Below are positions 10,921 through 61,145 of a stretch of 64,000 nucleotides of DNA, in pieces. Location of the stretch: IMG/VR virus record IMGVR_UViG_3300010885_018971, positions 26,796 to 90,795 of that record. The stretch is one strand, 5' to 3'. The notes beneath the pieces are model-generated. The model did no database searches. It saw only the letters and a program-made list of their open reading frames with translations, and had not been told where the DNA came from. A program made the position numbers and the translations under genes. Source of the stretch: a virus. Position 1 is the first letter of the stretch, and every line of letters starts with the position of its first letter.

Positions 10921-10953
10921 TCCCCCCAGATCCGTAGGGCATCAAAATATCCC

Positions 10954-10982: not shown

Positions 10983-11010
10983 TATATTATGGGAGTGAAC
11001 TGGAAACACT

Positions 11011-11543: not shown

Positions 11544-11551
11544 GGTATAAT
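11523..11551 (+). promoter_or_regulatory. sigma70-type promoter TTGTCT-N17-TATAAT
   Basis: 17 bp spacer; TATATT-ATG follows. Confidence 0.75.
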
Positions 11552-11557
11552 TATATT

Positions 11558-12646: not shown

Positions 12647-12647
12647 A

Positions 12648-12866: not shown

Positions 12867-12890
12867 TACTTTTATACAAAGGAAATACAA

Positions 12891-13805: not shown

Positions 13806-13821
13806 TTGATTGATGCTTAGC

Positions 13822-13848
13822 AAAAAGCCACCGAAAGGTGGCTTTTTT
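13822..13848. terminator. bidirectional rho-independent terminator
   Basis: AAAAAGCCACC-GAAA-GGTGGCTTTTTT between convergent genes. Confidence 0.92.
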
Positions 13849-13851
13849 CAT

Positions 13852-43837: not shown

Positions 43838-45202
43838 ATGTCAACTATAACCTTAAGAGCGACTAAAGGGTCTCCACTTACCAATACGGAAGTGGACAAT
43901 AACTTTAGTAATCTAAACACTGATAAAATTGAATCCACGTATAGTGGGGCACTGAATAGCCTTACTGGTGGTTCAGCTATCACTACAGTTAGCTCTACCA
44001 CTGGTATTACTACAGGTGCATGGAAAGCAACGACAATTAGCCCACTTTATGGTGGTACTGGTGTTGCTCAGGCTAGTGCCTCAAGTACTTTAACGATCTC
44101 TGGTGCGTACGGAACTACACTTACTGTAAGCGGGACTACTTCTCTTACACTACCAACAAGTGGTACTCTAGCTACCCTAGCTGGTACTGAAACTCTTACA
44201 AATAAAACATTAACCTTTCCTTCGATCGATAACACTAAATTAGGTTATAGTACTACTGCTACTGCAGCTGGTACAACTACCCTATCTTCTACGAGCAATA
44301 ACCAGCAATTCTTTACTGGATCTACTACACAAACTGTTCACTTACCAGATACTTCTACCTTAGTAGCTGGCGTATCTTATACGATCGTAAACCAAAGTTC
44401 TGGTGTTGTTACTGTTAGAACCACAAGTGGTACTAACCTTGTTTTTGCAGTTCCTGCTTCTACACAGGCTACATTCACTTGTATTAGTACAGCTAGTAAT
44501 GCTGCTGCTTCATGGTACTATAATGCTGGTGCATCTGCTGGATCAACTAGTATTATTACTCTAGGTACTATTACTACTGGTACTTGGAATGCTACAGGTA
44601 TTACAGTACCATATGGTGGTACTGGTTTATCATCTGCAACTGCTTATGCTGTTCTTTGCGGTGGAACTACTTCTACTGGTGCTTTCCAATCAATCGCTTC
44701 TGTAGGTGCATCAGGTACGGTATTGACAAGTAATGGTGCTGGTGCACTTCCTACTTTCCAAACAGCTGGTGGTGGTGTTACAGTTTCAGATGATACTTCA
44801 ACTAATAGTAATTCAAGATATCCTCTATTTACATCAGCTACTTCTGGCTCTGTAAGCACAACAAACGTATCCAGCACTAAATTATACTATAACCCAAGTA
44901 CTGGTACTCTAAATGCAACAAACTTTAACTCTCTATCTGACGAGACATTAAAGTCAAATATTACACCTATCGTAAATGCTACAGCTATTGTTCGTGCATT
45001 GAATGGTGTTGAATTTGATTGGACAGATACTGGCGATAAATCTTCTGGTGTTATCGCTCAGCAATTAGAAACTGTTTTACCGCACTTAGTTAATACAAAT
45101 GAAGATGGTATTAAGTCTGTTAACTATCAGGGTATCACTGCTTATCTTATCGAAGCATTCAAAGAATTTGATCAAAGACTACAAAACTTAGAAGCAAAAT
45201 AA
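43838..45202 (+). CDS. tail fibre with C-terminal intramolecular chaperone (peptidase S74-like)
   Basis: KGSPLTN.EVD.NF N-terminus; T/S/G-rich shaft; SD.TLK.NI, GVIAQ.LE.V.P.LV, VNY.G....LIEA.KE. Confidence 0.88.
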   Translation: MSTITLRATKGSPLTNTEVDNNFSNLNTDKIESTYSGALNSLTGGSAITTVSSTTGITTGAWKATTISPLYGGTGVAQASASSTLTISGAYGTTLTVSGTTSLTLPTSGTLATLAGTETLTNKTLTFPSIDNTKLGYSTTATAAGTTTLSSTSNNQQFFTGSTTQTVHLPDTSTLVAGVSYTIVNQSSGVVTVRTTSGTNLVFAVPASTQATFTCISTASNAAASWYYNAGASAGSTSIITLGTITTGTWNATGITVPYGGTGLSSATAYAVLCGGTTSTGAFQSIASVGASGTVLTSNGAGALPTFQTAGGGVTVSDDTSTNSNSRYPLFTSATSGSVSTTNVSSTKLYYNPSTGTLNATNFNSLSDETLKSNITPIVNATAIVRALNGVEFDWTDTGDKSSGVIAQQLETVLPHLVNTNEDGIKSVNYQGITAYLIEAFKEFDQRLQNLEAK

Positions 45203-45203
45203 A

Positions 45204-46217
45204 ATGGCTTTCACAGAAAACGGCACTACCTTAATTAATGATTCAGGTGCATTATCACTAACTGGTTTAACACTTACCAGTACTGATAGGCTTAATGTGG
45301 GGATAACCGCAAAACTTCCAACAGCTACATTTCAAGGTGTTACTGCAGGATTTACGTCAGGTGGTTATGTTGGTCCAAAAAGTGCAGTTATTGATAAATT
45401 TACATTCGCTGCTGATAATACATCAACTAACGTAGGTAGTATTAGTCAGGCAAGATATAACATTGGTGGTAACTCTTCGGCGACGTTTGGGTATACTACT
45501 GGTGGTATTAATCCTTCTGATTCACAAAATACTACAACTATTGATAAATATCCTTTTTCAATATCAAGTGGAACTGGAACATCAGTAGGTGCATTAAGCA
45601 CTGGTAGACAAGGTCTAGTTGGACAATCATCTATTCCATACGGATATGGTTGGAGTACAGGTGGTCAAACAGGAAGCGTAATTGATAAATTTGCATTCGC
45701 TTCAGATGGAAATGCTACTTCAGTTGGCACTATAACTGTTGCTAGATATACTGCAGCAGGACAATCATCGGCAACATATGGATATACCTCTGGTGGTGTT
45801 TCACAAGATAATTCCACTTACTATAGTACGATTGATAAATTCCCATTCGCTTCAAGTACAAACGCTACTTCAGTTGGATCTTTAGCAGTTAGTAGAAGGT
45901 ATGGTAGTGGATTATCTTCCACTATTAGTGGTTATACTGCTAGTGGACAAATTGCATCAGCAACTTACAATACTATTGATAAATTTCCATTCGCAACAGA
46001 TACAAACGCCACGGGAGTTGCTTCATTAGCTATTTCTAAATCTGGTGCTGCTGGTGTTTCATCAACAGATTATGGATATTCTGTTGGTGCATATCTTATT
46101 CCATCAACAACTGTTACATCACAAATAGATAGATTTGGTTTTGCTGCAGATACTTCTGGAATAATTTCTGGCGCATTATCACAGAAACGATACGCTTCAT
46201 CAGGTCAACAGGTATAA
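45204..46217 (+). CDS. Kelch-like six-repeat beta-propeller protein 1
   Basis: about 48 aa repeats GY.SGG...IDKFPFA.D.NAT.VG.L...R. Confidence 0.8.
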   Translation: MAFTENGTTLINDSGALSLTGLTLTSTDRLNVGITAKLPTATFQGVTAGFTSGGYVGPKSAVIDKFTFAADNTSTNVGSISQARYNIGGNSSATFGYTTGGINPSDSQNTTTIDKYPFSISSGTGTSVGALSTGRQGLVGQSSIPYGYGWSTGGQTGSVIDKFAFASDGNATSVGTITVARYTAAGQSSATYGYTSGGVSQDNSTYYSTIDKFPFASSTNATSVGSLAVSRRYGSGLSSTISGYTASGQIASATYNTIDKFPFATDTNATGVASLAISKSGAAGVSSTDYGYSVGAYLIPSTTVTSQIDRFGFAADTSGIISGALSQKRYASSGQQV

Positions 46218-46220
46218 AAA

Positions 46221-47282
46221 ATGGCATTTACACTAACAACTCCAGTAACATCTATTGCTGATACTGAACCAGCAAGCTATTTTGATACTATCACCATAAC
46301 TGGTGGTGCGCTTCAGATGACGCATACTGATCAGTTTCAGGGTACAAATTTTGGATATAATGCTCAGGGTAATACACGTTCTGGTGCTCCAGAACTAAAC
46401 AACTATAAAATAATTGAACGATTTCCATTCGCCACGGATACAAACGCAACTACAGTTGGATCAACTTCTGAAAACAGCGCATATCGTGGATCTGGATGGT
46501 CGGCACCATCTTGTGGTTTCCATAGCCCTGGATATATTGGATTTATTGAAAAAGTACCATTCGCAACTAATTCACCTGTCATGGGTCAGTGGGCAGGAAT
46601 TTGGCGTTTGACTACAAACACTCAACATTACGCAACTCCTAATTCCTCATTATCTCATGGTTATCTGAGTGGTGGAAGAAATCCAGGAAACTCAGGCACC
46701 GTGACTGATATGCAAAGATATCCATTCGCATGCGATTATAGTGCTATTTCTACTGGAGCATTAAACTATAATAGAGAATTTGGTGCTTCTGCGCAAAATA
46801 CAACTAATGGATTTATCATGGGAGGTGGAATTGATAATACTGCTTCTAGGGTTACAACAGTAACATCATTCCCATTCGCAGCATCAACACCAACTAGCAA
46901 TGTTGGTAATCTTGCTAATACTGTTAGTATTAGTACTGGGAATTCTTCAACTACTCATGGTTATTCTTCTGGTGGTAATGCTCCTCCTGGACCATCAGTT
47001 TCCACAATTACAAAGTTTCCATTCTCAGCATCTCCAGCTACTGGAACTACAGTTGGTAATTTGTCTGATACTGCATGGGGAAATCAAATTGGCATAAGTA
47101 GCACTCTGTACGGATATCACATGTTGGGTATCGGAAAAACCAATCCAAATCCGCCAACTACATCACCATTCAGTCAATGGTCTACTCAATACGAAAAATA
47201 CTCGTTTTCAACAGATGGAAATGCTACTTCAGTTGGAAACTTAACAATGGGTAAGTACGGGTTTGCTAGTTGGCAAGATTAA
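46221..47282 (+). CDS. Kelch-like beta-propeller protein 2
   Basis: same repeat, six copies. Confidence 0.8.
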   Translation: MAFTLTTPVTSIADTEPASYFDTITITGGALQMTHTDQFQGTNFGYNAQGNTRSGAPELNNYKIIERFPFATDTNATTVGSTSENSAYRGSGWSAPSCGFHSPGYIGFIEKVPFATNSPVMGQWAGIWRLTTNTQHYATPNSSLSHGYLSGGRNPGNSGTVTDMQRYPFACDYSAISTGALNYNREFGASAQNTTNGFIMGGGIDNTASRVTTVTSFPFAASTPTSNVGNLANTVSISTGNSSTTHGYSSGGNAPPGPSVSTITKFPFSASPATGTTVGNLSDTAWGNQIGISSTLYGYHMLGIGKTNPNPPTTSPFSQWSTQYEKYSFSTDGNATSVGNLTMGKYGFASWQD

Positions 47283-47297
47283 TTAGAGAAAACTAAA

Positions 47298-48338
47298 ATG
47301 ACATTCAAAAGATCAGGTACAGACATTTTTGACTCTAACAGAGTAATGTCAGCTGCAACACTTAATTTAATATCAAATACAGGAACAATTGAAGTTACTA
47401 ATGCACCACCAGCACTGGGTACAGTTGCTGGGTATATTGCTGGTGGTAATGGTGCTTCAAATGTTATTGCTAGATTTCCATTCGCATCAGATACAAATGC
47501 TACTTCAGTTGGAGTTTTAACTGTTGCTAGATCAGATTCTGCAAATACATCATCTCAAGTTGCTACTTATAGTTCTGGTGGGTATACTAGCGGTGCTACA
47601 GAACTTCAAACTATAGAAAGACTGACATTCGCAAGTGCAACTCCATCAGTGACATACATAACTGGACTAATTAATGATTATTATGTTTCACCATCTTATA
47701 GAAGAGGCCACACTGGGGTATCTTCTCCAGTTAGTGGTTATTTTGTAGGTGGAACTTCTCTTGGTACTTCACAGGCTATTATTGATAAATTTTCTTTTGC
47801 GACTCAGAGTTCATCTAGTATGCAATTCGTTGGTAATGTAACAAATGCCAGATATTATATGTCTGGACAAAATTCTGATACAAGTGGATACGTAACTGGT
47901 GGTATCTTAACTAATACTGCGCACACAGATGAGTCCGCAAAGTTTCCATTCGCAACAGACACCAATGCCACCAATGTTCTTACTTTAACTCAAGCTAAAG
48001 CATTTAGTACTGGCATTTCAAATGCAACATATGGTTATCAGGTTGGTGGTCAGATAACTCCACCAACTCTTGTAAATACTGACACGATCAATAGATTTCC
48101 ATTCGCATCAAATGTAAATGCTACAAATGTGGCATCACTGAATACCGTGCGTTCTAATTCAGCTGGATTTAGTTCAACAGCTAGCGGATATGTTGCTCAG
48201 GGATATAATGCAGCTAATCCAACACCGAGTGGGAACAACATATCAAAATTCTCGTTTGCTTCTGAATCTACAAGTTCTTCTGTTGGAACAGTTTCATACA
48301 ATTCAAATAGACAAAGCAACGCTGGATCTCAAGATTAA
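47298..48338 (+). CDS. Kelch-like beta-propeller protein 3
   Basis: same repeat, six copies. Confidence 0.8.
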   Translation: MTFKRSGTDIFDSNRVMSAATLNLISNTGTIEVTNAPPALGTVAGYIAGGNGASNVIARFPFASDTNATSVGVLTVARSDSANTSSQVATYSSGGYTSGATELQTIERLTFASATPSVTYITGLINDYYVSPSYRRGHTGVSSPVSGYFVGGTSLGTSQAIIDKFSFATQSSSSMQFVGNVTNARYYMSGQNSDTSGYVTGGILTNTAHTDESAKFPFATDTNATNVLTLTQAKAFSTGISNATYGYQVGGQITPPTLVNTDTINRFPFASNVNATNVASLNTVRSNSAGFSSTASGYVAQGYNAANPTPSGNNISKFSFASESTSSSVGTVSYNSNRQSNAGSQD

Positions 48339-48343
48339 TTAAT

Positions 48344-48388
48344 AAAAGGTTAATCTAGATTAACCTTTTTCCACTTCGGTGGTTTTTT
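48344..48388 (+). terminator. 26 bp perfect palindrome plus UUCG-loop terminator
   Basis: AAAAGGTTAATCTAGATTAACCTTTT then CCAC-TTCG-GTGG-TTTTTT. Confidence 0.8.
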
Positions 48389-48431
48389 CGTTAGATATAT
48401 AATTATATGATGAATTAAATATGGAGTTATA

Positions 48432-49259
48432 ATGAATCAATTGCATTTTTGCGGTGGGCTTCCAAGATCAGGAAGTACCATCTTGATGAATATTTTACAG
48501 CAAAATCCCAAAGTCTTTACTACAGGTACATGCGCTCTGCATGGCTTAGTGCAAGATGCTATGCTTGTTAAATCAAGATTCAGGGAACAGTTCCAAGCAA
48601 TGTCCGTAGAACAAGCCGATAAGGCTATGTATGGAGCAGTGCATGGCGCAACAAAAGGATGGTTTGAAGCACTGACGAATAAACCAATTATTATATCTAA
48701 AAATCGTTCATGGTCTGATGTATTTCATATTTACCCAGAATCTAAGTATATTTGCATGGTTCGAGATATACGAGATGTTGTTGAGAGTTTTGAAAAAGTT
48801 AATCATAGAACTTTAGCTCTGCATTCTTTTGGAGAATCCTTGACATTATCTGCAGGAATGCATGAAGCCGAAAAATATAAATTTTATTTGGGTGAATCGA
48901 ATTCATTGACCGCATCGTTGACTCTTGAACTTCCAAGATTAATGGAAACTTTTAAGAAAACTCAAAATAAAGTTTTGTTTATTCGTTATGAAGATTTTAC
49001 AACAGATCCTGTTACATCATTAAAACAATTGTATAATTTTATTGGGCAAGAGTATTACGAGCATGATTTAAATAATATTTCTCAATCTGAACTTATTGAG
49101 CATGATAATGCTTACTTCAGAGAACGAACTGATCACACTACACATCCAAAATTTCAATATTATACCGAACCAAATAGATCATTGTCTACAACTTTCCATG
49201 GAAATGTTTTGAATGAATTTAAATGGTTTTATGAAGGATTTTACCCAAATGTTAAATAA
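48432..49259 (+). CDS. PAPS-dependent sulfotransferase
   Basis: GGLPRSGSTIL (5'-PSB loop), K.R.W, VRDIRDVVES (3'-PB), IRYEDF..DP. Confidence 0.88.
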   Translation: MNQLHFCGGLPRSGSTILMNILQQNPKVFTTGTCALHGLVQDAMLVKSRFREQFQAMSVEQADKAMYGAVHGATKGWFEALTNKPIIISKNRSWSDVFHIYPESKYICMVRDIRDVVESFEKVNHRTLALHSFGESLTLSAGMHEAEKYKFYLGESNSLTASLTLELPRLMETFKKTQNKVLFIRYEDFTTDPVTSLKQLYNFIGQEYYEHDLNNISQSELIEHDNAYFRERTDHTTHPKFQYYTEPNRSLSTTFHGNVLNEFKWFYEGFYPNVK

Positions 49260-49848
49260 TATACAACCGATTGAAATTAATGGTCTTACTACATTTATTA
49301 CACAAAGTGTAGTATCAGATAAGGCAGTTGAACAGGCTATAGCAGCAATGCAAGTTTTACGTCCACGTGAAGGTAAGACAGGAACTGGTATTGATAAATC
49401 TAAAAAAGATTCTTTAGATTTAACTTTACCACCAAATCATTGTATGCTTATACAAAATGAGATATTGGAAATTGGAGCACAATATGTAGAGTATTATAAT
49501 CTACATGGTATTGTGCCTCCATTGGCAGTCACTGAACATTTTAATGTTCAAAAATATCCACTCAAAGGTGCTTTTCACAGAATTCATGCAGATCGAGGAT
49601 ATGGTCCGCATGAACATAGTTTAAGAGAACTTGTTTGGATGACTTATTTAAATGATGTTCATACTGGTGGTGAAACTGAGTTTATGTTTTATAAATTAAA
49701 GATTAAACCACAGAGAGGTTTAACATTATTGTGGCCAGCTGGATGGACTCATTTACATCGTGGACTACCATCAGCAACTACGGAGAAAATGATTATTACT
49801 GGATGGTTAACTCCAATTCCAATCGAGACACCTTTGGAGTCAAGATGA
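49249..49848 (+). CDS. 2OG-Fe(II) oxygenase (prolyl-hydroxylase-like)
   Basis: NVQKY, HAD, WMTYLNDV..GGET.F, WPAGWTH.HRG, K.IITGW; start MLNNIQ after AAGGA. Confidence 0.88.
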   Translation: MLNNIQPIEINGLTTFITQSVVSDKAVEQAIAAMQVLRPREGKTGTGIDKSKKDSLDLTLPPNHCMLIQNEILEIGAQYVEYYNLHGIVPPLAVTEHFNVQKYPLKGAFHRIHADRGYGPHEHSLRELVWMTYLNDVHTGGETEFMFYKLKIKPQRGLTLLWPAGWTHLHRGLPSATTEKMIITGWLTPIPIETPLESR

Positions 49849-50438
49849 ACAATATAAAAGAATATAGTCACCATTTATTTGCAGTTCCCATATGGGGTTT
49901 TTATTTAAACACAGAGCAATATCATGCAGCAGATTATATCTCTAAAATTTTAGAGATGAAAAAAAATGAAGAAAGTGTTAAAAAAAGTAATTTTGGTGGG
50001 TGGCAATCTAGAGATGACCTAAATACAACAGAGGGTATCTTTAAAGAATTTGTAGGGATTTTAAATAATCTTTCTAAGGAAATAGGCAACGAATATTTTA
50101 AAGGTGATTTGGCAGGTAATATTGAAGTCCAGGAAATGTGGGCAAATGTTAATTATAAATACTCTTACAATGCAGGACATACCCACAGTGGTATTCTTTC
50201 TGGTGCTTTTTATTTACAGGTTCCACCAAATTCTGGGGATTTAATTTTAATGAATCCTGCAGTTAGAAGTGATACTAGTGTATTACGAACTAAGGATTAT
50301 AATATAAAACCAGAAAAGTTACTTTGTGTACTTTTTCCAAGTTGGCTCGAGCATTATGTTGAGCAAAGTTTGAGTGATGAAGAAAGAATTAGTATTAGTT
50401 TTAATATAGGAATAAAGGGTGAAAATGCAATCTATTGA
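49845..50438 (+). CDS. putative 2OG-Fe(II) oxygenase (TIGR02466/PF13759-like)
   Basis: SNFGGWQS, WAN.N, HTH, SG.FY, FPSWL.H.V, RISISFN. Confidence 0.88.
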   Translation: MNNIKEYSHHLFAVPIWGFYLNTEQYHAADYISKILEMKKNEESVKKSNFGGWQSRDDLNTTEGIFKEFVGILNNLSKEIGNEYFKGDLAGNIEVQEMWANVNYKYSYNAGHTHSGILSGAFYLQVPPNSGDLILMNPAVRSDTSVLRTKDYNIKPEKLLCVLFPSWLEHYVEQSLSDEERISISFNIGIKGENAIY

Positions 50439-51741
50439 CTTTTTTAATAAAAATGGTTACGTTGTTCTTACAGATGTTTTAACCAAAGATCAATGTAAAG
50501 AGTTAACTCAACACATGTTTAATTTACATGAACAGGGTAAACTAATAAAAGACGACCAGTGTCCAACATCTGATGCTGTTTATGGTGATCCAGTATTTGA
50601 TAAAATTCTTCAAGATTTTGCTGAACCTGTTGGGAAACAAGTTGGTAAAAGATTATTACCAACATATACATATGCAAGAATATATCGTCCAGGAGAAATT
50701 CTTAAGAAACACACTGATCGTCCTGCATGTGAGATTAGTACAACATTAACATTAGGATATGAAGGACCAACATGTTGGCCAATTATATTTGATGAAAAGA
50801 AATGTATTCCAGTTTTGCTAGAACCTGGAGAGATGGCAGTATACAAAGGATGCGATGTAGTACACTGGAGAACTGAGTTCAAAGGTAAATGGCATGTCCA
50901 AGTATTCTTCCATTATGTAGATGCAGATGGTCCACATAAAAATGAGTATAAAGATAGACGTGCAGATTTTGGACTTAATAAAACAAGTAATGACGCACAA
51001 CAACAAGCAGATATAGATAAGTACCTTAGAAATTCTATTCCTTCCGTTGCTGCTTATAATAAAGCAGATACTGGTGTAAGACATTTAGACCCAAATCAGA
51101 AGTTTACATTACCAGTTTTGAATGGCGTAATTATTCCCAGTAATGATGAGCACTTCCCTGGATATGCTGTGTTTGATAGTAAAACTCTTCCAGAGATTAC
51201 ATTCACTAAAGAAGAATGTGATAAAATTACTAGTATGGTAAAGAACTATTATCCGACGACTGCGAGTGTAGGTGGTACTGAAGAAAGTAGTAGAGTTAAT
51301 GATAAGATTCGTTCTGCTGACATTTATATCTTAGATAATGATGCAGATAATGCTTGGATTCATAGAAAAATTGGTCAAATTGTTTCTGTTGCAAACAAGT
51401 TACACTTTGACTATGACATAGCTGGTATTACTCATGGTATTCAATTGATTCATTATAAATCAAATGGAGAGGTTCCTGGTCACTATGACTGGCATGTTGA
51501 TTCTGGTCCAGGACAACCAGCCACTAGAAAAATATCATTTACTGCACAATTAACTGACCCGAATGAATATCAGGGCTGCGAATTGATTATAAATAATCAT
51601 GGAGAGACAGTAGTCGCATCTAAGGAACAGGGATCTGTCCATCTGTTCCCTAGTTATATGTCGCATAAAGTTAACCCGATTACAAAAGGTGAACGATTTG
51701 CATTAGTAATTTGGATACATGGATCAAGGAGATTTAGATAA
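50425..51741 (+). CDS. fused double 2OG-Fe(II) oxygenase
   Basis: N domain HTDR..CEIS.T...HWR...QVFFHY; C domain (PKHD/PiuC-like) WHVD..RKIS..FPSY..HKV.P.TKGER..LV.W. Confidence 0.88.
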   Translation: MQSIDFFNKNGYVVLTDVLTKDQCKELTQHMFNLHEQGKLIKDDQCPTSDAVYGDPVFDKILQDFAEPVGKQVGKRLLPTYTYARIYRPGEILKKHTDRPACEISTTLTLGYEGPTCWPIIFDEKKCIPVLLEPGEMAVYKGCDVVHWRTEFKGKWHVQVFFHYVDADGPHKNEYKDRRADFGLNKTSNDAQQQADIDKYLRNSIPSVAAYNKADTGVRHLDPNQKFTLPVLNGVIIPSNDEHFPGYAVFDSKTLPEITFTKEECDKITSMVKNYYPTTASVGGTEESSRVNDKIRSADIYILDNDADNAWIHRKIGQIVSVANKLHFDYDIAGITHGIQLIHYKSNGEVPGHYDWHVDSGPGQPATRKISFTAQLTDPNEYQGCELIINNHGETVVASKEQGSVHLFPSYMSHKVNPITKGERFALVIWIHGSRRFR

Positions 51742-52692
51742 ATGAATGATAATAATGAAAAACTGAAAACTACAGACTTAGCGATTTTTGAAGAAATTCG
51801 CAGAGACTTAGCACTTACATCAACTTTGAATGTGCCGATGAGCTACGTTTTTGGACGTGGTATTGTTGGCAATAAAGAAAGTTTTGGTGGCGCAACTCTA
51901 AACGAAAATACGGTTAAAGTTGATCATGCGCTGGCTAATGTTCAAGAACTACAAAATATCTGGAACCATAGCCATACTCAATGGACTTGGAGACACTTAA
52001 ATCTGTCTTACCATTCTCCTATTAGAAATATGCGTCAAATTTCAGCTGAAATGGCTGCTAAAAAATCCGCTCTAAATGAGGCTAAGTGGAAGCATGTTGA
52101 GAATGAGATGAAAATGCGTAAGATCGAGGAAGAACTTACGAGGGGTATGGAAGACGGGACTATTGATTACTGGCGTGAAGTTGAATTAAAGGTAAGATTG
52201 GCCAAGATGAAAGAAGGTCTTGAGGCAGGAACTACCTATATCGAAGGCGCAATGAAAGATGTATTAACGCTAAATAGTCTTTATGAGCAATTAAAAGAGC
52301 AGGTTTCTTCGTTCTCTGAAGCTGACGTTGAAAAGGAAGAGACAAAATCTCACCTTAAAAGATCATTGGTTCAGTGTATTCGTGATGTAAGGGAACGTGG
52401 GGCTATCTCCAAAGGCGAGCAAGAATACAACGAGCAGATTGGTGTTAATCCAATGAAGTTACAAGGTTTGCTACAAAAATATGTAGCATCTGAGGCTGCA
52501 GAAGATAATTGGAGTTGCAGTGGATTGTATGAGTTTGTTGATAAATTAACAGACGAATTGGCTGATGTTTATAAAGTTGATCATGTACGTATGGGACTTT
52601 CTGGATTTAATCCAGATGTTCTACCAGACTACTCTTATACAAATAAGGTAGCTTTGTTAACTAGTAACAAAAAACCAGAAGAGGAAAACTAA
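51742..52692 (+). CDS. helical/coiled-coil protein of unknown function
   Basis: 316 aa; WNHSHTQW, SP.RNMRQISAE, long heptad region. Confidence 0.8.
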   Translation: MNDNNEKLKTTDLAIFEEIRRDLALTSTLNVPMSYVFGRGIVGNKESFGGATLNENTVKVDHALANVQELQNIWNHSHTQWTWRHLNLSYHSPIRNMRQISAEMAAKKSALNEAKWKHVENEMKMRKIEEELTRGMEDGTIDYWREVELKVRLAKMKEGLEAGTTYIEGAMKDVLTLNSLYEQLKEQVSSFSEADVEKEETKSHLKRSLVQCIRDVRERGAISKGEQEYNEQIGVNPMKLQGLLQKYVASEAAEDNWSCSGLYEFVDKLTDELADVYKVDHVRMGLSGFNPDVLPDYSYTNKVALLTSNKKPEEEN

Positions 52693-52693
52693 A

Positions 52694-53038
52694 ATGGCAG
52701 TAATAGAATACATGATGGTCAAGGATGGACCACGCAGACAAGTTCCTGAATTCGTAGGAGACAGAGGACATTGGTATAGCCCTATCGATAGCACTTATAT
52801 CGGATGGGTTGATGACAGCAGAGATTACTATGTCCCTGACACAGTATTAACTTTGACTAAAGCGCAACTTGTTGCTAGACAGCTTCTGGTGCATGCAGAA
52901 TATCCAATGAGAAAACCTGAAACTGTGGAACATATGCAAAATAATACAAAACCAGATGTAATGACTGAGGCTGAAGTAACAGCTCAAGTTGAAGAATGGT
53001 ATGATGCATTTGTAACGTCAAACACTACAAACGGATAA
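52694..53038 (+). CDS. hypothetical protein
   Basis: 114 aa, GAGGA RBS. Confidence 0.75.
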   Translation: MAVIEYMMVKDGPRRQVPEFVGDRGHWYSPIDSTYIGWVDDSRDYYVPDTVLTLTKAQLVARQLLVHAEYPMRKPETVEHMQNNTKPDVMTEAEVTAQVEEWYDAFVTSNTTNG

Positions 53039-53044
53039 ATAATT

Positions 53045-53167
53045 ATGCCTCCTGAAATACTCGCACATAGATTAATAGAGTTAGATAGTAATGAATTAAT
53101 AGAATTACTAAAAAATTTAGATCCTGAGGCATATGGCGCAATCTTAGACAAACTAGAAGAACTATAA
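53045..53167 (+). CDS. small acidic helical peptide (40 aa)
   Basis: manual translation MPPEILAHRLIELDSNELIELLKNLDPEAYGAILDKLEEL; TAATG-coupled to 53167. Confidence 0.55.
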   Translation: MPPEILAHRLIELDSNELIELLKNLDPEAYGAILDKLEEL

Positions 53168-54270
53168 TGACAATCCGTATCAAAAAAGATAAAATCGAAT
53201 TTGTTGATGATGCAAGTGGGAATACATTTACATTAAAAGAAACAGGCACAGGTTTTACCTTTGATGGTACGATTGCATCGTGGGAAGTACGACCAAATAC
53301 ATATACTGGAACGGCATCGGGGTATCATGCTGGTGGGTTTACAATTCCTGGTACTGCCATAACAACAATTGATAAGATGTCACTTGTATCTGATGGCAAT
53401 TCATCTGCAACTGGTAATTTAACACAGGCAAGAGGTTCCCAGCAGGGTATGTCTTCTTTAACGCATGGTTATTCTGCTGGTGGCTACTGGGGACCAGTAG
53501 GTACTGTAGCTACATTTGAAAAATATCCATTCGCTTCCAATAGTAATTCTACTTCGATTCCATCGTTGCCTGTGGCTAGACGCTTTGAGGCAAATAGTGG
53601 GGTTGTTTATACTGGTGGGCAGGTTGGGTGGATCTGTGGTGGAAATCCAGGATACACAACAATGACAAAAATTTCATTCAATCAAGATGGATCTAACTCA
53701 AACAGTGGTGGTTATCTTGCTGACGGAGGAAGAAATTCTTATACTGCAATTAGCTCTACAACGCATGGATTTTTTGCAACTGGAAGTACTCAACAGCCAG
53801 CGCCAGGATATTCAACTGATAAAATTTTACGATTCCCATTCGCTGCAGGTGGATCGAATCCCATAGCAGGCATCAATTCTCAACTTGCTGCAATTCAGGT
53901 AAGTCCAACTTCAGTTACACCAATTGCTCGCCTTTATAGTCATGGGCATCAATCAAGTACTTCTGGTTATATTTACGGTGGCCAAAGTCCAGCTGGTCCA
54001 GGCACTGATCAGTACGTCATGAGGTTCCCATTTGCTGCAGACAATATTGTCACTAATATTGGTGGACTTGGTTCATCATCTGTTGCAGTTGGATATAATG
54101 GTGGTGCTGCTGTTTCATCACCACAGTTTGGATTTATAGTTGGTGGAACAAATGGTGGATATATGCCTGGAGTAAGAATATTAAAATATCCATTCGCCAG
54201 TGAATTAAATGTAACTTCTGTTGGTTCTTTAACCACTTCCCATGGTCAAGGTTCTCCAGGTCAAGTATAA
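53167..54270 (+). CDS. Kelch-like beta-propeller protein 4
   Basis: GY.AGG..KYPFA repeats. Confidence 0.8.
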   Translation: MTIRIKKDKIEFVDDASGNTFTLKETGTGFTFDGTIASWEVRPNTYTGTASGYHAGGFTIPGTAITTIDKMSLVSDGNSSATGNLTQARGSQQGMSSLTHGYSAGGYWGPVGTVATFEKYPFASNSNSTSIPSLPVARRFEANSGVVYTGGQVGWICGGNPGYTTMTKISFNQDGSNSNSGGYLADGGRNSYTAISSTTHGFFATGSTQQPAPGYSTDKILRFPFAAGGSNPIAGINSQLAAIQVSPTSVTPIARLYSHGHQSSTSGYIYGGQSPAGPGTDQYVMRFPFAADNIVTNIGGLGSSSVAVGYNGGAAVSSPQFGFIVGGTNGGYMPGVRILKYPFASELNVTSVGSLTTSHGQGSPGQV

Positions 54271-54279
54271 GAGTAAAAA

Positions 54280-55374
54280 ATGGCAATAACAATAAACTCA
54301 GATAGAATTAATATTGGCGATACCGTAGTCCAGATAACTCCGACTGGAATTCAGGTAGTCAATGGGCACTTTAGAGCACAGGCTATAGCACCATCTACAA
54401 CAACTGGTGCTATGGGAAGTAACTATGGATATGCTACTGGAGGTCGAACTGGTGTTCCTGGACTTAACGATCAAACAAATATTGAAAAAATAGAAAGATG
54501 GTCATTAACATCAGATGGTAATTCAGCTTCCGTTGGGGCTTTGAGTGGTGCAGGTGGTGGTATCGGAATGTTTAATAATTCATCAATTACTTCTGCATAT
54601 GCATCTGGTGGATATGCTGGTCCACCGTATTTTTCACCTCCAGGGGCTGGAAATAGAAGATCTGGTATTAATAAATTTCCATTTGCATCTTCAGCAAATT
54701 CAACAAGTATTGGCGCACTTTCAACAAATATTGGCAATCCTAGCACTGGTAGAAGTGATGGTGCCAGTTTGACTTCTGAGGCTTCTGGTTATCAAGCCTC
54801 AGGTCAAGATGGTGCTGACTACAGAGTAACAGTTAGTAAGTTTCCATTCGCAACAGATACAAACGCCACCACTGTTTCTCAAGTTAATCAACAAAGATCT
54901 GGTTCTACTGGCGCATCATCTTCAAGCTATGGATACGTAATTGCTGGTAATCAAAATCCAACTACCAATGTGGAAAAAGTTTCATTTGCAACGGATAGTA
55001 ATGCAGTTAGTATAGGCCAGTTATTGGGGGTAGGAAGATCATCGCAGGCATCACAGAATTCTCTTACTTCCGCATATGTAAGTGGTGGATATCCAGATCC
55101 AGGTGGATCACCTGCAGTTATAAGCAGTATTGAACGATTTCCATTCGCCAGTGATGTTCCAGCAACATCAGTTGGTTCAATAACACAGGCCAGACGAGGT
55201 GGTCCAGCTGGTGTTTCTTCAACAACATCTGGTTATACTGCTGGTGGATACGCTGCTGCTTCATGGTCTTCAGTCATTGATAAATTCCCATTCGCCACAG
55301 ATACAAATGCAGTTTCTACTGGATCTTTGTTATCTGGTAAAGGATTTTTCGGTGGCCACGGTAACGTATACTAA
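54280..55374 (+). CDS. Kelch-like beta-propeller protein 5
   Basis: GY..GG..KFPFATDTNA repeats. Confidence 0.8.
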   Translation: MAITINSDRINIGDTVVQITPTGIQVVNGHFRAQAIAPSTTTGAMGSNYGYATGGRTGVPGLNDQTNIEKIERWSLTSDGNSASVGALSGAGGGIGMFNNSSITSAYASGGYAGPPYFSPPGAGNRRSGINKFPFASSANSTSIGALSTNIGNPSTGRSDGASLTSEASGYQASGQDGADYRVTVSKFPFATDTNATTVSQVNQQRSGSTGASSSSYGYVIAGNQNPTTNVEKVSFATDSNAVSIGQLLGVGRSSQASQNSLTSAYVSGGYPDPGGSPAVISSIERFPFASDVPATSVGSITQARRGGPAGVSSTTSGYTAGGYAAASWSSVIDKFPFATDTNAVSTGSLLSGKGFFGGHGNVY

Positions 55375-55386
55375 AAAGAGAACAAC

Positions 55387-56454
55387 ATGGCAATTAAACT
55401 TTACTCAGATCGCATAGAAATCGGCAATTTTACATTGGCCAACGATGGTAATGGAATTAACTTCTCTGGAGTGGCTGAGGCAAATGCTTTCTCATCATCA
55501 TACATTGGCGGAAAACAGGCAGCGTATAGATCTGGTGGTTATCAAGATAATCGAATTTACAAATATAATTTTGCATCATCTTCAAGTTCAGAAACTGTAG
55601 GTGAGCAAGGTCCAGCATATCCACTATGGAATCCTGGTCAGCCTTCAACGATGTTACGTTGGAGATATGGTGGTGGCGGTTCAGCTTCAAAAACTCATGG
55701 TTATGTATTCGGTGGTACTGGTGCAGGTGCTTCCAACGCTTCCAGCATAATTGTTAAATTCCCGTTTGCTGTTCCTTCAGTACCACAGACTGCAGTTGGA
55801 AATTTACCATATGCTGGAGGATGTCCAGAACATGCTCGCAATGGTGAGAATACATTTGCAGCAGTGACTCAATCTCCTAGTCCTGTTGCTCCACAGGGTT
55901 ACTGGACTAAATTCTCATTACAGTCAGACAATCAATCAATGACTGCAACTAATGCTAGAATGGGAGGAAATTCTGGTGGAGTAAATTCATCATCAACTCA
56001 TGGATACATGGCTGGTCAATATGCAGGTAGCGATGTTATTGGTATGTTCCCGTTCGCGAACAGTTTACCATCAGTAACATCTGGAAAACTAAACAATCAA
56101 AGATATGATTGTCGGGCGCATTCTTCTAAAACTCATGCATACGCATATGGTGGATTTACATATAGTATTCCTGGAGGAGCCAATGTTTTATCACAAGAAA
56201 GATGGCCATTTGCCAATAATGGACCAGCAACTACAACAGGTACATTAGCTCCAGGTAATGCCCGACAAGGAGCCATGTCGCATGAAGATGAATCGTATGG
56301 ATACATGGCTGGAACATCAGTTGGTGGTGGCACTTTTACTGCACCATATACGTCACTGACAAGATTTAACTTTTCTACCGATAATTTTGTTTTAGATAAT
56401 GTAGGCACTTTTACGTCTGAAGGCCAATCTAATAACAGTCATATTCAAGTATAA
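55387..56454 (+). CDS. Kelch-like beta-propeller protein 6 (most divergent)
   Basis: HGY..GG..FPFA repeats. Confidence 0.78.
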   Translation: MAIKLYSDRIEIGNFTLANDGNGINFSGVAEANAFSSSYIGGKQAAYRSGGYQDNRIYKYNFASSSSSETVGEQGPAYPLWNPGQPSTMLRWRYGGGGSASKTHGYVFGGTGAGASNASSIIVKFPFAVPSVPQTAVGNLPYAGGCPEHARNGENTFAAVTQSPSPVAPQGYWTKFSLQSDNQSMTATNARMGGNSGGVNSSSTHGYMAGQYAGSDVIGMFPFANSLPSVTSGKLNNQRYDCRAHSSKTHAYAYGGFTYSIPGGANVLSQERWPFANNGPATTTGTLAPGNARQGAMSHEDESYGYMAGTSVGGGTFTAPYTSLTRFNFSTDNFVLDNVGTFTSEGQSNNSHIQV

Positions 56455-56503
56455 AGGTTTTTAGGTGGTATAAATAGATTTATGATTTAACAATGGAGGT
56501 ATT

Positions 56504-57364
56504 ATGGCACAGCGAATTTTAGTGATGGGACTACCAGGATCTGGTAAAACTTATTTTTCGGATCGTCTTAAAACATATCTGGAAACTCATGGGGATATTT
56601 ACAAAGTTAATCCCCAACGAATAATGAATTATGAGGGTATTCCATCTAGGAATTTCCTTCAGGTAGGTGTTGACTGGTTCAACGCTGATGAGATAAGAAA
56701 GAAATATAATGATTGGGATTTTTCTAAAGAAGGAAGAATTCGTCAATCATTGCGTATGTTTCAGTTTGCATTTGAGTGTACTGGTGACTATGTAATTTGT
56801 GACTTTGTTGCGCCACTCGTTGAGATGCGTAATAACTTCAAAGCTGATTGGGTTATCTGGATGGATACCATTGATGCTGGTCGTTATGAAGATACAAACA
56901 AAGCATTTACTCCGCCAGATGTCTATGACTTTAGAATCACTGAGCAAAACGCAGAGAAGTGGGTTGAGTTTGTTGGTTCTCATATTTTAGAAAATCGTCG
57001 CAGACCAAAGTTTGACTGGCAAAAAGAAACAGTTCAAATGCTCGGAAGATGGCAGCCATGGCATGCTGGACATCGTGCTTTATTTGAACGTGCCATTGCC
57101 AAGACAGGACAGGTTGTAATTCAGATTAGAGACTGTCAGGGGTGGCAGGGTTCCAATCCTTTTGCAATTGAGCAGGTAAAGAGTTATATTAAACGTGATC
57201 TAGATACACTATACCAAGGACAATATGAGATTCAGGTTGTTCCGAATATCGTGAATATTACGTATGGACGTGACGTTGGTTATAAGATTGAACAAGAATC
57301 TTTTGATAAATCTGTAACAGATATCTCAGCCACCAAGATCCGCAAGGAAATGGGAATTGAGTGA
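56504..57364 (+). CDS. adenylylsulfate kinase-like domain fused to HxGH nucleotidyltransferase domain
   Basis: GLPGSGKT P-loop, NADEIR, DFS.EGR.RQ, DFVAP, F..P; C domain LGRWQPWHAGH, NI.YGR.VGY, ISATKIR. Confidence 0.85.
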   Translation: MAQRILVMGLPGSGKTYFSDRLKTYLETHGDIYKVNPQRIMNYEGIPSRNFLQVGVDWFNADEIRKKYNDWDFSKEGRIRQSLRMFQFAFECTGDYVICDFVAPLVEMRNNFKADWVIWMDTIDAGRYEDTNKAFTPPDVYDFRITEQNAEKWVEFVGSHILENRRRPKFDWQKETVQMLGRWQPWHAGHRALFERAIAKTGQVVIQIRDCQGWQGSNPFAIEQVKSYIKRDLDTLYQGQYEIQVVPNIVNITYGRDVGYKIEQESFDKSVTDISATKIRKEMGIE

Positions 57365-57563
57365 TACTCCAGTTCGCAGTCTGGCAAAGGCTGTTAGCTG
57401 GCGAGTTACAGGGACTATTGATACGTTTCTTATTAGTTGGCTAATAACAGGGCAGGTGTTACTTGCTTCAGGTATTGCTCTTACTGAAATTATGACTAAG
57501 ATTGTTTTATTTTGGCTGCATGAAAGAGTTTGGAATAAAGTAAACTGGGGTAAATCCCAGTAA
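57357..57563 (+). CDS. DUF2061-family small membrane protein
   Basis: RSLAKAVSWR..GTIDT, E..TK..L...HERVW..V.WG. Confidence 0.85.
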   Translation: MSDTPVRSLAKAVSWRVTGTIDTFLISWLITGQVLLASGIALTEIMTKIVLFWLHERVWNKVNWGKSQ

Positions 57564-57599
57564 AAAATAAACCCCACTTTATGTGGGGTTTTTGTTTTT
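57563..57599 (+). terminator. rho-independent terminator
   Basis: AAACCCCAC-TTTAT-GTGGGGTTT followed by T-run. Confidence 0.88.
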
Positions 57600-58232: not shown

Positions 58233-60566
58233 ATGGCAGATAAATCAACAATAAAAATTAAAAGAAGTAGTACCACAAACGCACCAAGTACGTTAAATAC
58301 TGGTGAATTGGCCTATTCCTTTGGCGCAGGTGCACAAAACGACAATGGTGGTAGACTATTTGTTGGTGGAATGGGTGTAGGCTCAGATCTAAACTCAGCA
58401 ACTGGTGCTCCAATTATTATCGGTGGTAAATACTTCACTGACATGATGGATCACGTAACTGGCACATTAACTGCTAGTTCTGCTGTTCTAGTCGACTCAA
58501 ATAAGAAAATTGATGAGTGGTTAGTTGATAACCTATCGTTAAATGGCAATACATTAAGTTCAACTGATACCAATGGTAATATTCTAATTACTCCGAATGG
58601 TACTGGTAAAACTGTTATTACAGCACCATACATTGGTGATACATCAACTACTCTTGCTGAATACATCTATGATACAGTTGGTGGTGCAATCACTCAAGGT
58701 ACTGGTATCAGCGTAACGAATGATGATGCTGGGAATACTTCCACTATCGCTCTTGCTTCTGGTGTTGCAACTCCTGGAACATATGGCACTTCTTCAGCAG
58801 TTCCTGCAATAACAATTGACACATATGGTCGTGTTACTAGCATAACTACTAACAGTATTGCATCTTCTGCTCTAACTGTTGCAGCTGATAGTGGAACTGC
58901 TGACGTTGTTACACTTGGTACTGATACCTTGACGTTTGAGGGTGGTACTGGTATTGATACAACAGTATCTAATAACAAAATTAAAGTTGATATTGATTCA
59001 ACTGTTGCTACTTCTGGTAAGAAACTTTCTTTCTTCTCCGCAACTTCTTCTTCAGAATTAGCTGGTGTTATTTCTGATGAAACAGGCACTGGTGTTCTAG
59101 TATTCGGTACTTCTCCAACAATCACTACTAGCATCGTTGCTGGCAGTGCTTCAATGGACATCTTTAATACTACTGCAACTGCTGTTAATGCTTTCGGTGC
59201 TGCGGCAACATTGAGTATTGGTGCTGCTAGTGGTACAACTACAGTTAACAATGATCTAAACCTAGCTTCTGGTAAAGTACTAAAGATTAATAGTACTGAA
59301 GTTCTAAGTGGCACTACTCTTGGTTCTGGTGTTACTGGATCTAGTTTAACAAGCGTTGGTACTATCGGTACTGGTGTTTGGCAAGGTACTGCTGTTGCAG
59401 TTGGTTATGGTGGTACAGGAACAAATACAGGTTCTATCACTGGTACTGGTGCATTAACTTTCACTGCTGGTGGTTCAGATACTAATGTTAACCTTGCTCC
59501 ACAAGGAACTGGTACTGTTGATGTTGGATCTAAGAGAATTACTTCTGTTGCTACTCCAACTCAGGCAACTGATGCTGCAAATAAGGGTTACGTTGATGCC
59601 GTTAAACAGGCACTAGATGTTAAAGATTCAGTTCGTATTGCAACTACTGCAAACTTAAACGTAACTGCTTCTGGCACTGGTGCAGGTAAAACACTTACTA
59701 ATGCTGGCACACAGGCTGCAATTACTATTGATAGCATTCCTCTATCATCTGGTGATCGTGTTTTAGTTAAAAATCAAACTGCTTCTGAAGACAATGGTAT
59801 CTATACGGTTACCACTGTTGGTACTATTTCAACAAACTGGGTATTGACTCGTGCAACTGATGCTGATGGTTCTCCAGCTGCAGAAGTTACTTCTGGAATG
59901 TTTACTTTCGTTGAAGAAGGTACAGTAAATGCTGATTCTGGTTGGGTTCTATCAACTAATGGCGCAATCACTGTTGATACTACTGGATTAACATTCACTC
60001 AGTTCTCTGGTGCTGGTCAAATTACTGCTGGTAATGGTCTAACTAAGACTGGTAATACAATTGATGCTGTTGGTACTACTGACCGTATTTCTGTTAGCAC
60101 TGATGCTATCGATATCGCTTCTACATATGTTGGTCAGATTTCTATCACTACGCTTGGTACTATCGGTACTGGTACTTGGGCTGGCACTGCAGTTGCTGGT
60201 CAATATGGTGGTACTGGTGTAGCAAACACTGGTAAGACAATTACTCTTGGTGGTAATCTTACTACTTCTGGCGCATATGCTACTACACTAACAGTAACTA
60301 ATGATACTAACGTAACTCTACCAACTACTGGTACTCTTGCTGCCACTACAAATACTACATTCAGTACTGGTTCTACTTGGAACGGTAATACAATTGGATC
60401 TGGTTATGGTGGTACTGGATTCAGTACTTATGCAAAGGGTGATTTAGTTTACGCTTCTGCTGTAGATACACTAAGCAAATTAACTGCTGGCGCTGATGGC
60501 ACAATCCTACAAGTTAACTCTTCTGGTGCTTTGGTGTGGGGTGGTATTGATGGTGGAACATACTAA
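58233..60566 (+). CDS. tail fibre protein
   Basis: IKIKRS....P..L..GELAY N-terminus; DAANKGYVD, GDRVLVKNQ....NGIY, LTRATD; ends IDGGTY. Confidence 0.85.
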   Translation: MADKSTIKIKRSSTTNAPSTLNTGELAYSFGAGAQNDNGGRLFVGGMGVGSDLNSATGAPIIIGGKYFTDMMDHVTGTLTASSAVLVDSNKKIDEWLVDNLSLNGNTLSSTDTNGNILITPNGTGKTVITAPYIGDTSTTLAEYIYDTVGGAITQGTGISVTNDDAGNTSTIALASGVATPGTYGTSSAVPAITIDTYGRVTSITTNSIASSALTVAADSGTADVVTLGTDTLTFEGGTGIDTTVSNNKIKVDIDSTVATSGKKLSFFSATSSSELAGVISDETGTGVLVFGTSPTITTSIVAGSASMDIFNTTATAVNAFGAAATLSIGAASGTTTVNNDLNLASGKVLKINSTEVLSGTTLGSGVTGSSLTSVGTIGTGVWQGTAVAVGYGGTGTNTGSITGTGALTFTAGGSDTNVNLAPQGTGTVDVGSKRITSVATPTQATDAANKGYVDAVKQALDVKDSVRIATTANLNVTASGTGAGKTLTNAGTQAAITIDSIPLSSGDRVLVKNQTASEDNGIYTVTTVGTISTNWVLTRATDADGSPAAEVTSGMFTFVEEGTVNADSGWVLSTNGAITVDTTGLTFTQFSGAGQITAGNGLTKTGNTIDAVGTTDRISVSTDAIDIASTYVGQISITTLGTIGTGTWAGTAVAGQYGGTGVANTGKTITLGGNLTTSGAYATTLTVTNDTNVTLPTTGTLAATTNTTFSTGSTWNGNTIGSGYGGTGFSTYAKGDLVYASAVDTLSKLTAGADGTILQVNSSGALVWGGIDGGTY

Positions 60567-60631
60567 ATAACTTAGTATACAGAGGGGAGTTTTTACTCCC
60601 CTGTTCCAGTTTCCTTTTTTAAGGGTTGAGT

Positions 60632-61117
60632 ATGGCGAATAAGATTCTTCTTAAGAAATCTTCAACTGCAGCAAAAGTTCCTGTAGTTGGAGACTTAGAA
60701 TATGGTGAGTTAGCAATTAACTACACCGATGGCAAACTGCATTATAAAACTAATGCTAATGAGATTGATGCATTTTCTTCAAATACAGCAACTGCCACAT
60801 TAAGCAATAAAACCCTTTCATATACGACTTTAGCTGGATCATTAACAGCCTCTGGTTCAACAGGATCATCTGGTCAAGTTTTAACATCATCTGGTGCTGG
60901 TGTTACATGGACAGATGTTACATCACTTGGTTTTGTTGGAGGATATAATAATTCCTCAGCAACATCATTCCCATCGGGAGATTTCCAAGGTACAGATGCA
61001 TATGTCGGTGTAGGTGGTATTGCTTTCGATAGTTTCGGAACTTCACTTGTACCATCTTTCACTTGTATGGATCCAGTTGGATCTTTACAAAGTCAAGATC
61101 TGGGCGCATTAACATAA
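60632..61117 (+). CDS. short tail fibre-related protein
   Basis: ILLKKSS...P....L.YGELAINY.DGKL.YK; G.SGQVL.S.G. Confidence 0.75.
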   Translation: MANKILLKKSSTAAKVPVVGDLEYGELAINYTDGKLHYKTNANEIDAFSSNTATATLSNKTLSYTTLAGSLTASGSTGSSGQVLTSSGAGVTWTDVTSLGFVGGYNNSSATSFPSGDFQGTDAYVGVGGIAFDSFGTSLVPSFTCMDPVGSLQSQDLGALT

Positions 61118-61145
61118 AGATAAATAAGATTTGAAGGAATAATAA

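Follow-up and report, generated by a model that had tools for sequence, protein, structure and literature searches.

Bacterial operons whose products would hydroxylate and then sulfate a protein were predicted in 2010 by Iyer, Abhiman, de Souza and Aravind (PMC2938197), and combined oxygenases of the beta-hydroxylase and PhyH types with a sulfotransferase, sometimes a 3'-phosphoadenosine 5'-phosphosulfate (PAPS) synthetase, and a co-encoded presumed substrate. The substrates proposed for these operons, as a prediction only, were bacterial collagen-like Gly-rich peptides or the "tail-collar" proteins of T4 short tail fibres. Here we describe a phage locus that may share their proposed logic and that has the combination of a PhyH-like oxygenase, another 2-oxoglutarate (2OG)-Fe(II) oxygenase and a sulfotransferase: a cassette of six genes for Kelch-like propeller proteins with a set of enzyme genes between them. 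The cassette was analyzed in a stretch of 64,000 nucleotides, referred to below as the window, which corresponds to the last 64 kb (positions 26,796 to 90,795) of the 90.8-kb virus record IMGVR_UViG_3300010885_018971 of the IMG/VR database; the record is rated 57% complete and its end coincides with the window end. No collagen or tail-collar domain was identified in the cassette proteins, and the non-enzymatic proteins encoded with the enzymes were instead the Kelch-like propellers. Searches of the literature found no paper that joined phage, sulfotransferase, tail fibre and 2OG oxygenase. A preliminary description of this DNA had stated that no experimental description of such a system was known, and we likewise found none, but a computational prediction has existed since 2010.

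A second point of comparison is the host recognition cluster (HRC) of pelagimyophages and cyanomyophages, a hypervariable island reported to start after VrlC and, in T4-like aquatic myophages, to end at the neck gene gp14 (Zaragoza-Solas et al. 2020, PMC7029224). The cassette occupies the same genomic place after VrlC, where fibres mixed with seemingly unrelated enzymes were reported. The main text of that article discusses glycosyltransferases, which are read as modifiers of the host O-chain; the terms "sulfotransferase" and "2OG-Fe" are absent from its main text, and the propeller/oxygenase/sulfotransferase cassette was apparently not described there (PMC7029224). In the window, a variable island with fibre genes inside it also followed VrlC, after a gap of 245 nt.

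Viral enzymes that modify viral proteins have precedents. The prolyl 4-hydroxylase (P4H) of PBCV-1 (PDB 5c5t) and the lysyl hydroxylase/glycosyltransferase L230 of mimivirus act on Pro-rich or collagen-like viral proteins. Both are from eukaryotic giant viruses, with (PAPK)n or collagen substrates and no sulfotransferase, whereas the candidate substrates considered here are propeller loops in a phage. Judging by its title, a 2023 study by Freeman et al. reportedly concerns the glycosylation of mycobacteriophage virions by phage-encoded enzymes; this would be a similar decoration of a phage's own virion, although by glycosylation rather than hydroxylation or sulfation and in another group of phages. 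In addition, a 2025 study of a cyanomyovirus found an Ofd1-like oxygenase and a TolB propeller among the proteins of its virion preparation (PMC12801897).

Our main finding is a real, widespread and phage-specific association of hypervariable propellers with oxygenases resembling protein hydroxylases and with a sulfotransferase. All of the cassette genes in the window are on the + strand and have near-zero spacing. Propeller triplet A (337, 353 and 346 aa; 45204-46217, 46221-47282 and 47298-48338), assigned by paralogy, a blade hidden Markov model (HMM) and structure prediction for its first member, is followed after a spacer of 93 nt by the sulfotransferase gene (48432-49259) and the oxygenase genes ox1 (49213-49848), ox2 (49731-50438) and ox3 (50419-51741). 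After these come unk1 (51742-52692), unk2 (52694-53038), a gene for a 40-aa peptide (53045-53167) and propeller triplet B (367, 364 and 355 aa; 53167-54270, 54280-55374 and 55387-56454), assigned by paralogy and repeat parsing. The gene inventory of the preliminary description, which had six propellers around a sulfotransferase, oxygenases and three unknown genes, was therefore correct in content and position.

The association was assessed in 75 propeller-anchored loci, many of them cut short, and in 74 sulfotransferase-anchored viral loci. Homologues of ox3 were found in 41 of the 75 propeller-anchored loci, with unk1 and unk2 each in 34, a Peptidase_S74 (S74) fibre in 33, the sulfotransferase in 28 and ox2 in 26. 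The partner genes were on the same strand and interleaved as in the window, and the S74 fibre homologues preceded the propeller array. The sulfotransferase-anchored loci contained ox3 in 56 cases, propellers in 52, unk1 in 41, unk2 in 36 and ox1 in only nine; no other enzyme accompanied the sulfotransferase as often as ox3 did. Genomic co-occurrence had been suggested in the preliminary description as a check, and the outcome was strongly positive from the propeller side as well as from the sulfotransferase side. The cassette is common, occurring in hundreds of viral contigs and in at least one cultured carrier, Synechococcus phage S-SKS1.

The linkage outlasted rearrangement of the loci, which held from 1 to 10 propellers, had unk1 and unk2 in swapped order, and placed the sulfotransferase before or after the array. 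S-SKS1, the only cultured phage in which the propeller family was found, carries propellers, a sulfotransferase and oxygenases of about 30% identity beside its fibres. In three further loci (L149-L151), two RCC1-repeat propeller proteins of 727-729 aa are encoded in place of the Kelch-like ones, and these loci also hold a 37%-identical sulfotransferase, a split ox3, further oxygenases, glycosyltransferases of families GT25 and GT2, and homologues of a kinase fusion that in the window lies downstream of triplet B. In these more distant phages (L151, positions 84-14789, and likewise L149 and L150), the RCC1 proteins flank 2OG oxygenases, and the sulfotransferase, GT25, GT2 and kinase fusion genes follow.

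The six propellers of the window are mutually paralogous, each having about six repeats of about 48 aa, and the first and third members of triplet B are divergent propellers. The repeats share the signature IDKFPFAxDxNATxVGxL...GQSS...GYxSGG. AlphaFold2 (AF2), supplied with 67 homologues of the first propeller, returned a confident all-beta model (pLDDT, predicted local distance difference test, of 91.5) with 24 regularly spaced strands, and Foldseek matched this model to the Kelch domains of Keap1, KLHL12 and KLHL3 at E ~1e-18, with TM scores of 0.85-0.92 (target-normalised) and a root mean square deviation of ~2 Å. Based on the model, the propellers are predicted to have a six-bladed Kelch-type fold with a repeat signature of their own. 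Their likeness to Keap1, KLHL3 and KLHL12 lies in the six four-stranded blades of ~48 aa; they differ in being only ~15% identical, in lacking a BTB/BACK domain and in having a short N-terminal beta segment. No Pfam family, Kelch models included, matched any of the six propellers at E <= 0.01, or either of the two propellers that were tested up to E <= 10, and the sole family match was to phrog_19111, whose function is unknown. Six matches to the blade HMM were found in 198 of 208 distinct family members. Other predicted proteins of phages have a Kelch-like fold as well, among them "virion structural proteins" from the phiKZ-like group.

The propeller family comprises at least 1378 proteins, none of which is named beyond "hypothetical protein", and the propellers are almost confined to phages: members were found in 335 confirmed viral stretches of IMG/VR versus 10 among 185,579 prokaryote species genomes. 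The ten prokaryotic matches were on short contigs of metagenome-assembled genomes (MAGs) of Gammaproteobacteria, Glaciecola, Planctomycetota and Flavobacterium, and are probably phage fragments that were binned with the MAGs. The propellers also evolve far faster than the enzymes. Identity to the nearest relative was 94% for the kinase fusion, 88% for the fibre, 78% for unk1 and 53-67% for the enzymes, against only 29-38% for the propellers. Such fast evolution beside conserved enzymes fits host-recognition proteins that are served by a conserved tailoring set.

The sulfotransferase is predicted to be a soluble PAPS-type enzyme of 275 aa and matched PF13469 at E 7e-18 (66 bits against a cut-off of 27). 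Both PAPS-binding motifs, the 5'-phosphosulfate-binding motif GGLPRxGST and the 3'-phosphate-binding motif RDxRDxxES, are present and were invariant across 17 homologues; together with the Pfam score they place the protein among the PAPS-dependent sulfotransferases. A profile of these 17 homologues matched, among solved structures, TPST1 and TPST2 first (~4e-7, over the N-terminal half alone) and the CurM sulfotransferase at 1e-6, and NCBIfam returned the Nod-factor sugar (fucose) sulfotransferase NoeE at 2.6e-7. The TPST match takes in the segment PxSK...VRDxR, which we take to be the one that carries the catalytic Lys158 of TPST2, and the Lys of PxSK was conserved in the family. The column that presumably corresponds to the catalytic Glu of the TPSTs was variable among the homologues.

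The preliminary description had counted four 2OG-Fe(II) oxygenase domains in three genes, and this count was borne out: ox1 and both domains of ox3 have the motifs of the 2OG-Fe(II) superfamily, and ox2 belongs to it by family model only. The P4H-like ox1 matched PF13640 (E 1.5e-10) and has the motif H125-x-D127 with a later His; its matches to the prolyl 4-hydroxylases of PBCV-1 and Bacillus were weak (E ~1e-3, with PBCV-1 at 9e-4), and LH3 was reached at E 0.02-0.05. The ox2 product is putatively an oxygenase of the TIGR02466/PF13759 type (E 2.5e-22 and 1e-18, respectively), in which a motif scan saw no HxD/E motif. As listed, its open reading frame (ORF) starts at a GTG, encodes 235 aa and overlaps ox1 by ~118 nt; its homologues have ~185 aa, and the true start probably lies ~50 codons downstream. 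The third protein, ox3, is a double oxygenase with a PhyH-like N-domain and a PiuC/YbiX-like C-domain (phrog_2954, 3e-46; phrog_61, 7e-29), and its motifs H98xD100...H165 and H359xD361...H416...R426 were invariant in 23 homologues. Its C-domain matched PF13640 and PiuC structures (E ~1e-7). The match of its N-domain to Pfam PhyH was weak (E 0.064); S-SCSM1 ORF248, a homologue of this domain, has been reported with a PhyH domain, pfam05721 (PMC9602691). The motifs that bind cofactor and metal were intact in the sulfotransferase, in ox1 and in each domain of ox3. Neither the enzymes nor the propellers showed a signal peptide or a membrane segment. No statement of a substrate for PiuC was found in the literature, nor one of a function for DUF2061, a domain encoded downstream of the cassette.

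The ox3 N-domain (50419-51030) and its stand-alone homologues are labelled "ferrochelatase" in many cyanophage and pelagiphage records and PHROG families. This label looks like an annotation error copied between records, because the sequences have the HxD...H triad and are PhyH-like. A "ferrochelatase | 2OG" gene pair was found in 241 phage records, mostly without propellers. In phage Mosig, the 53-kb podophage HTVC033P and S-SCSM1, clusters of 2OG oxygenases adjoin the tail-fibre genes and there are no Kelch-like propellers. The presence of the ox3 pair, in the form of two adjacent genes, beside fibres in these propeller-free phages strengthens a general link between oxygenases and fibres. 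Marine phages very commonly carry 2OG oxygenases, whose functions had not been specifically investigated as of 2022 (PMC9602691).

Loops of the propellers were defined as the stretches between consecutive blade-HMM matches, giving 1002 loops family-wide. Pro made up 14.0% of loop residues, versus 2.9% of blade cores and 4.5% of N-terminal segments, and 83% of loops had at least one Pro. In loops of the commonest length (8 residues, n = 317), Pro was at position 3 in 71% and at position 4 in 39%, with the consensus GG-[FY]-[ATS]-P-P-x-[VST]-N-[TVI]-IDKFPFA. The Pro-rich loops of the preliminary description are thus a family-wide and position-specific property, which is stronger in the family than in the window, where the loops had 10% Pro. 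Tyr occurred in 29% of the variable loops, and the acidic residues were scarce (D 2.8%, E 1.3%). A fixed loop Pro may be structural, and the enrichment is compatible with modification but is no proof of it.

We propose self-decoration, in which the enzymes act on the propellers of the same phage or on fibres encoded nearby, and we give this reading close to an even chance. The place of the propellers on the virion, what the enzymes act on and which chemistry they perform are our inferences. The propellers would sit on the virion as host-binding modules with their variable, Pro-bearing loops on one face; the oxygenases and the PAPS-dependent sulfotransferase would modify them, or the fibres encoded nearby, while these are still in the cytoplasm and not yet assembled, and unk1, unk2 and the 40-aa peptide might act as assembly helpers. 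Candidate sites are Pro, Asn or Asp for hydroxylation and, for sulfate transfer, Tyr, Ser/Thr or a newly made hydroxyl. A particular form of this chemistry, in which the semi-fixed Pro or Pro-Pro of each blade's exposed loop is hydroxylated by the P4H/PiuC-type oxygenases and O-sulfation follows at the resulting hydroxyls, or at Tyr, Ser or Thr close by, to give a ring of 5-6 anionic groups on the binding face, we regard as a long shot; its step from hydroxyproline in a loop to an O-sulfate ester is conceivable but unsupported. If true, the ring of anionic groups would tune receptor range or protect the adhesin; to our knowledge, the product would be the first phage virion protein to be enzymatically hydroxylated and sulfated, and the first with an O-sulfated hydroxyproline.

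Several observations weigh against decoration of the phage's own proteins. The adhesin role assigned to the propellers in the preliminary description agrees with their behaving like host-recognition proteins (they lie beside fibres, are hypervariable and are almost confined to phages); their presence in the virion and their modification are predictions. As the ox3 pair also lies beside fibres where there are no propellers, the propellers cannot be the sole substrate. Among the small number of records that were informative, loop Pro did not clearly follow the presence of an oxygenase: ox3 lies ~28 kb away in a record whose propellers are Pro-poor, and none is present in a 65-kb fragment whose propellers are Pro-rich, although loci without an oxygenase were mostly truncated, which limits this comparison. 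The sulfotransferase resembles NoeE, which acts on a sugar, no less than it resembles the tyrosine sulfotransferases; it is ~55 kb from the propeller module in one relative, and is alone in about a dozen loci. Synteny within one phage lineage can come from common descent alone. Motifs of the T4-type late promoter were not enriched in the window, with 3 copies of TATAAATA observed versus 6.75 expected; one copy is at 56469, upstream of the kinase fusion gene, and an ATAAATA motif is at 53035, just 5' of the 40-aa peptide gene.

Some of these points are what would be expected if the enzymes, together with the glycosyltransferases of the variant loci, remodelled the host surface by modifying lipopolysaccharide (LPS), O-chain or envelope glycans. 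Such remodelling would block superinfection or change serotype, and the propellers would bind receptors on their own account, having only the island in common with the enzymes. It is the published reading of HRC enzyme genes, as set out in the main text of that work (PMC7029224), and it is consistent with the match to NoeE at 2.6e-7, with the GT25 and GT2 genes of the RCC1 variant and with a sulfotransferase that is sometimes unlinked from propellers. We consider it unlikely, if not negligibly so, on account of the interleaving of the enzymes between propeller genes on the same strand at near-zero spacing, the recurrence of the same enzyme set beside two unrelated propeller families, and the closeness of the P4H-, PiuC- and PhyH-type oxygenases to protein and peptide hydroxylases. 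In addition, any benefit from exclusion would come late and be short-lived if the genes were expressed with the fibres.

Improbable, in our judgement, is that the oxygenases, sulfotransferase and kinase fusion are unrelated cargo, that is, general auxiliary metabolic genes for tasks such as 2-oxoglutarate/nitrogen balance or the chemistry of small molecules, nucleotides or cofactors, whose linkage to propellers reflects shared descent in a plastic region beside the fibres. The wide distribution of 2OG oxygenases in marine phages (PMC9602691), the mostly propeller-free pair in 241 records and the occurrence of the kinase fusion, with at least 7953 homologues, in unrelated siphophages would all agree with cargo. 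A linkage that persists through rearrangement, at 30% identity in S-SKS1 and where RCC1 propellers replace the Kelch-like ones would not, nor would the co-travelling of unk1, unk2 and the 40-aa peptide or the oxygenase clusters that abut fibre genes in three very different phages. A variant of the decoration of propellers or fibres would have the sulfotransferase act like TPST or RaxST on exposed Tyr of loops or fibres, independently of the oxygenases, which would modify other residues. The best matches among solved structures (TPST2/TPST1, E ~4e-7) and the Tyr in 29% of loops point to this variant. We hold it to be quite improbable, since the match covers the N-terminal half only, NoeE and CurM score about as well, a variable column stands where the catalytic Glu of the TPSTs presumably lies, and the loops hold few of the acidic residues preferred by TPSTs.

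If decoration of the phage's own propellers or fibres is correct, abundant aquatic phages would chemically edit their own host-binding proteins, adding a layer of host-range control that is invisible to sequence-based receptor prediction, and phage 2OG-Fe(II) oxygenases would gain a function. It would also bear on the 2010 prediction that the hydroxylate-then-sulfate sequence of modifications, typical of the animal extracellular matrix, arose first in bacteria and phages.

The three genes between ox3 and triplet B are all on the + strand. The unk1 product (316 aa) was modelled by AF2 (pLDDT 89.3) as all-helical with a long antiparallel coiled-coil hairpin, and a PDB profile search, Foldseek and VIA-align gave generic coiled-coil matches only; there was no usable Atlas match and no tblastn match in cultured phages. 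The family comprises 409 representative clusters; of 83 aligned members, 61 matched phrog_1409, which has no known function, although the window protein itself did not. We infer that unk1 is likely to be an assembly factor or scaffold. The unk2 protein (114 aa), conserved in 36 of the 74 sulfotransferase loci, had no Pfam or PDB match, and its Atlas leads to tail-fibre assembly families were at chance level. The 40-aa peptide is acidic and probably helical, and its stop codon overlaps the start of the first propeller of triplet B. Its conservation was seen by tblastn, which gave 51 matches at E < 0.1; these represent 21 distinct sequences and occupy the equivalent position in >20 related loci.

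Downstream of triplet B is the gene for a P-loop kinase fused to an HxGH nucleotidyltransferase (56504-57364, +), which the preliminary description had called an APS kinase fusion. The fusion is present and has the DUF2061 neighbour described, but its identity as an adenosine 5'-phosphosulfate (APS) kinase was borderline: the whole fusion scored 20.5 bits against the APS_kinase Pfam cut-off of 21.1, and the N-domain alone 22.7 bits. The N-domain has a Walker A motif, with NAD at the DGD site and FVAP at the FISP site, DGD and FISP being what we take to be motifs of APS kinase (CysC). Many close homologues carry a precomputed PF01583 match. The C-domain (GRWQPWHAGH...ISATKIR) best matched nicotinamide mononucleotide adenylyltransferases (NMNATs; NF002243 2.7e-6, TIGR01527 1.4e-5, PDB 2qjt 3.8e-4) and also the general cytidylyltransferase fold, with no ATP sulfurylase among its matches. 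The fusion could, from these domains, make PAPS, NAD or coenzyme A-type products.

The distribution of the kinase fusion differed from that of the sulfotransferase. Among its homologues, the 120 best listed were 79-90% identical, and full-length relatives were found in siphophages of Xylella (Sano-like), Stenotrophomonas and Xanthomonas, in which the sulfotransferase search found none. Two large relatives, of which one is complete and the other 91% complete, encode the two domains as separate genes at a distance from the cassette. One 91%-complete relative has the kinase domains and no sulfotransferase, and one 89%-complete relative has the sulfotransferase and no kinase. The DUF2061 gene (57357-57563, +; PF09834 E 2e-22) is translationally coupled to the fusion and encodes a small membrane protein, the only hydrophobic protein of the region; it was absent from all five relatives searched. 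The fusion was present in 8 of the 74 sulfotransferase loci and DUF2061 in 1. Based on these counts, the unlinked presence and absence of the kinase, the homologues in siphophages and the NMNAT-like C-domain, we rejected a "miniature PAPS synthase" as a core part of the cassette, and the self-contained pathway with its own PAPS supply of the preliminary description was not supported. The kinase fusion and DUF2061 are accessory neighbours, not core, and PAPS is probably supplied by the host.

In its wider setting, the cassette belongs to a T4-like myophage of aquatic origin; as judged from its proteins, the cultured phages closest to it are OM43 and SAR11 myophages. Baseplate gp6 and VrlC were nearest to those of OM43 phage Melnitz and the Pelagibacter myophages Mosig and HTVC008M (40-45% identity), with lower identity to cyanomyophages (36-39%). 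No psbA was found in the 57%-complete record. A "cyanophage" host label was rejected on these two grounds. Megablast of the whole region gave no match in cultured phages. The VrlC homologue (2218 aa; 36937-43593, +; phrog_358, E 0), 42-45% identical by tblastn to the annotated VrlC of HTVC008M and Mosig, marks the upstream border of the HRC. A small ORF on the + strand separates it from a tail fibre or spike with a C-terminal intramolecular chaperone (43838-45202, +; Pfam Peptidase_S74, E 5e-13, residues 367-418), which directly precedes triplet A.

Two terminators had been placed in the region by the preliminary description. The one after the third propeller is plausible as a boundary between triplet A and the enzyme genes: tandem hairpins with a U6 tract (48344-48388, +) folded with a free energy of -13.7 kcal/mol (z -2.5), but were missed by a scan for the terminator consensus. 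The one after DUF2061 was found by that scan as an intrinsic terminator-like hairpin (57569-57591, +), with a 9-bp stem of which 5 pairs are GC, followed by a T-run, and it closes the unit. Beyond it, the interval 58233-63998 (+) holds three more genes for fibres or structural proteins of the virion (777 aa, 163 aa and 951 aa, the last open at the window end), which matched PHROG tail fibre and virion structural families.

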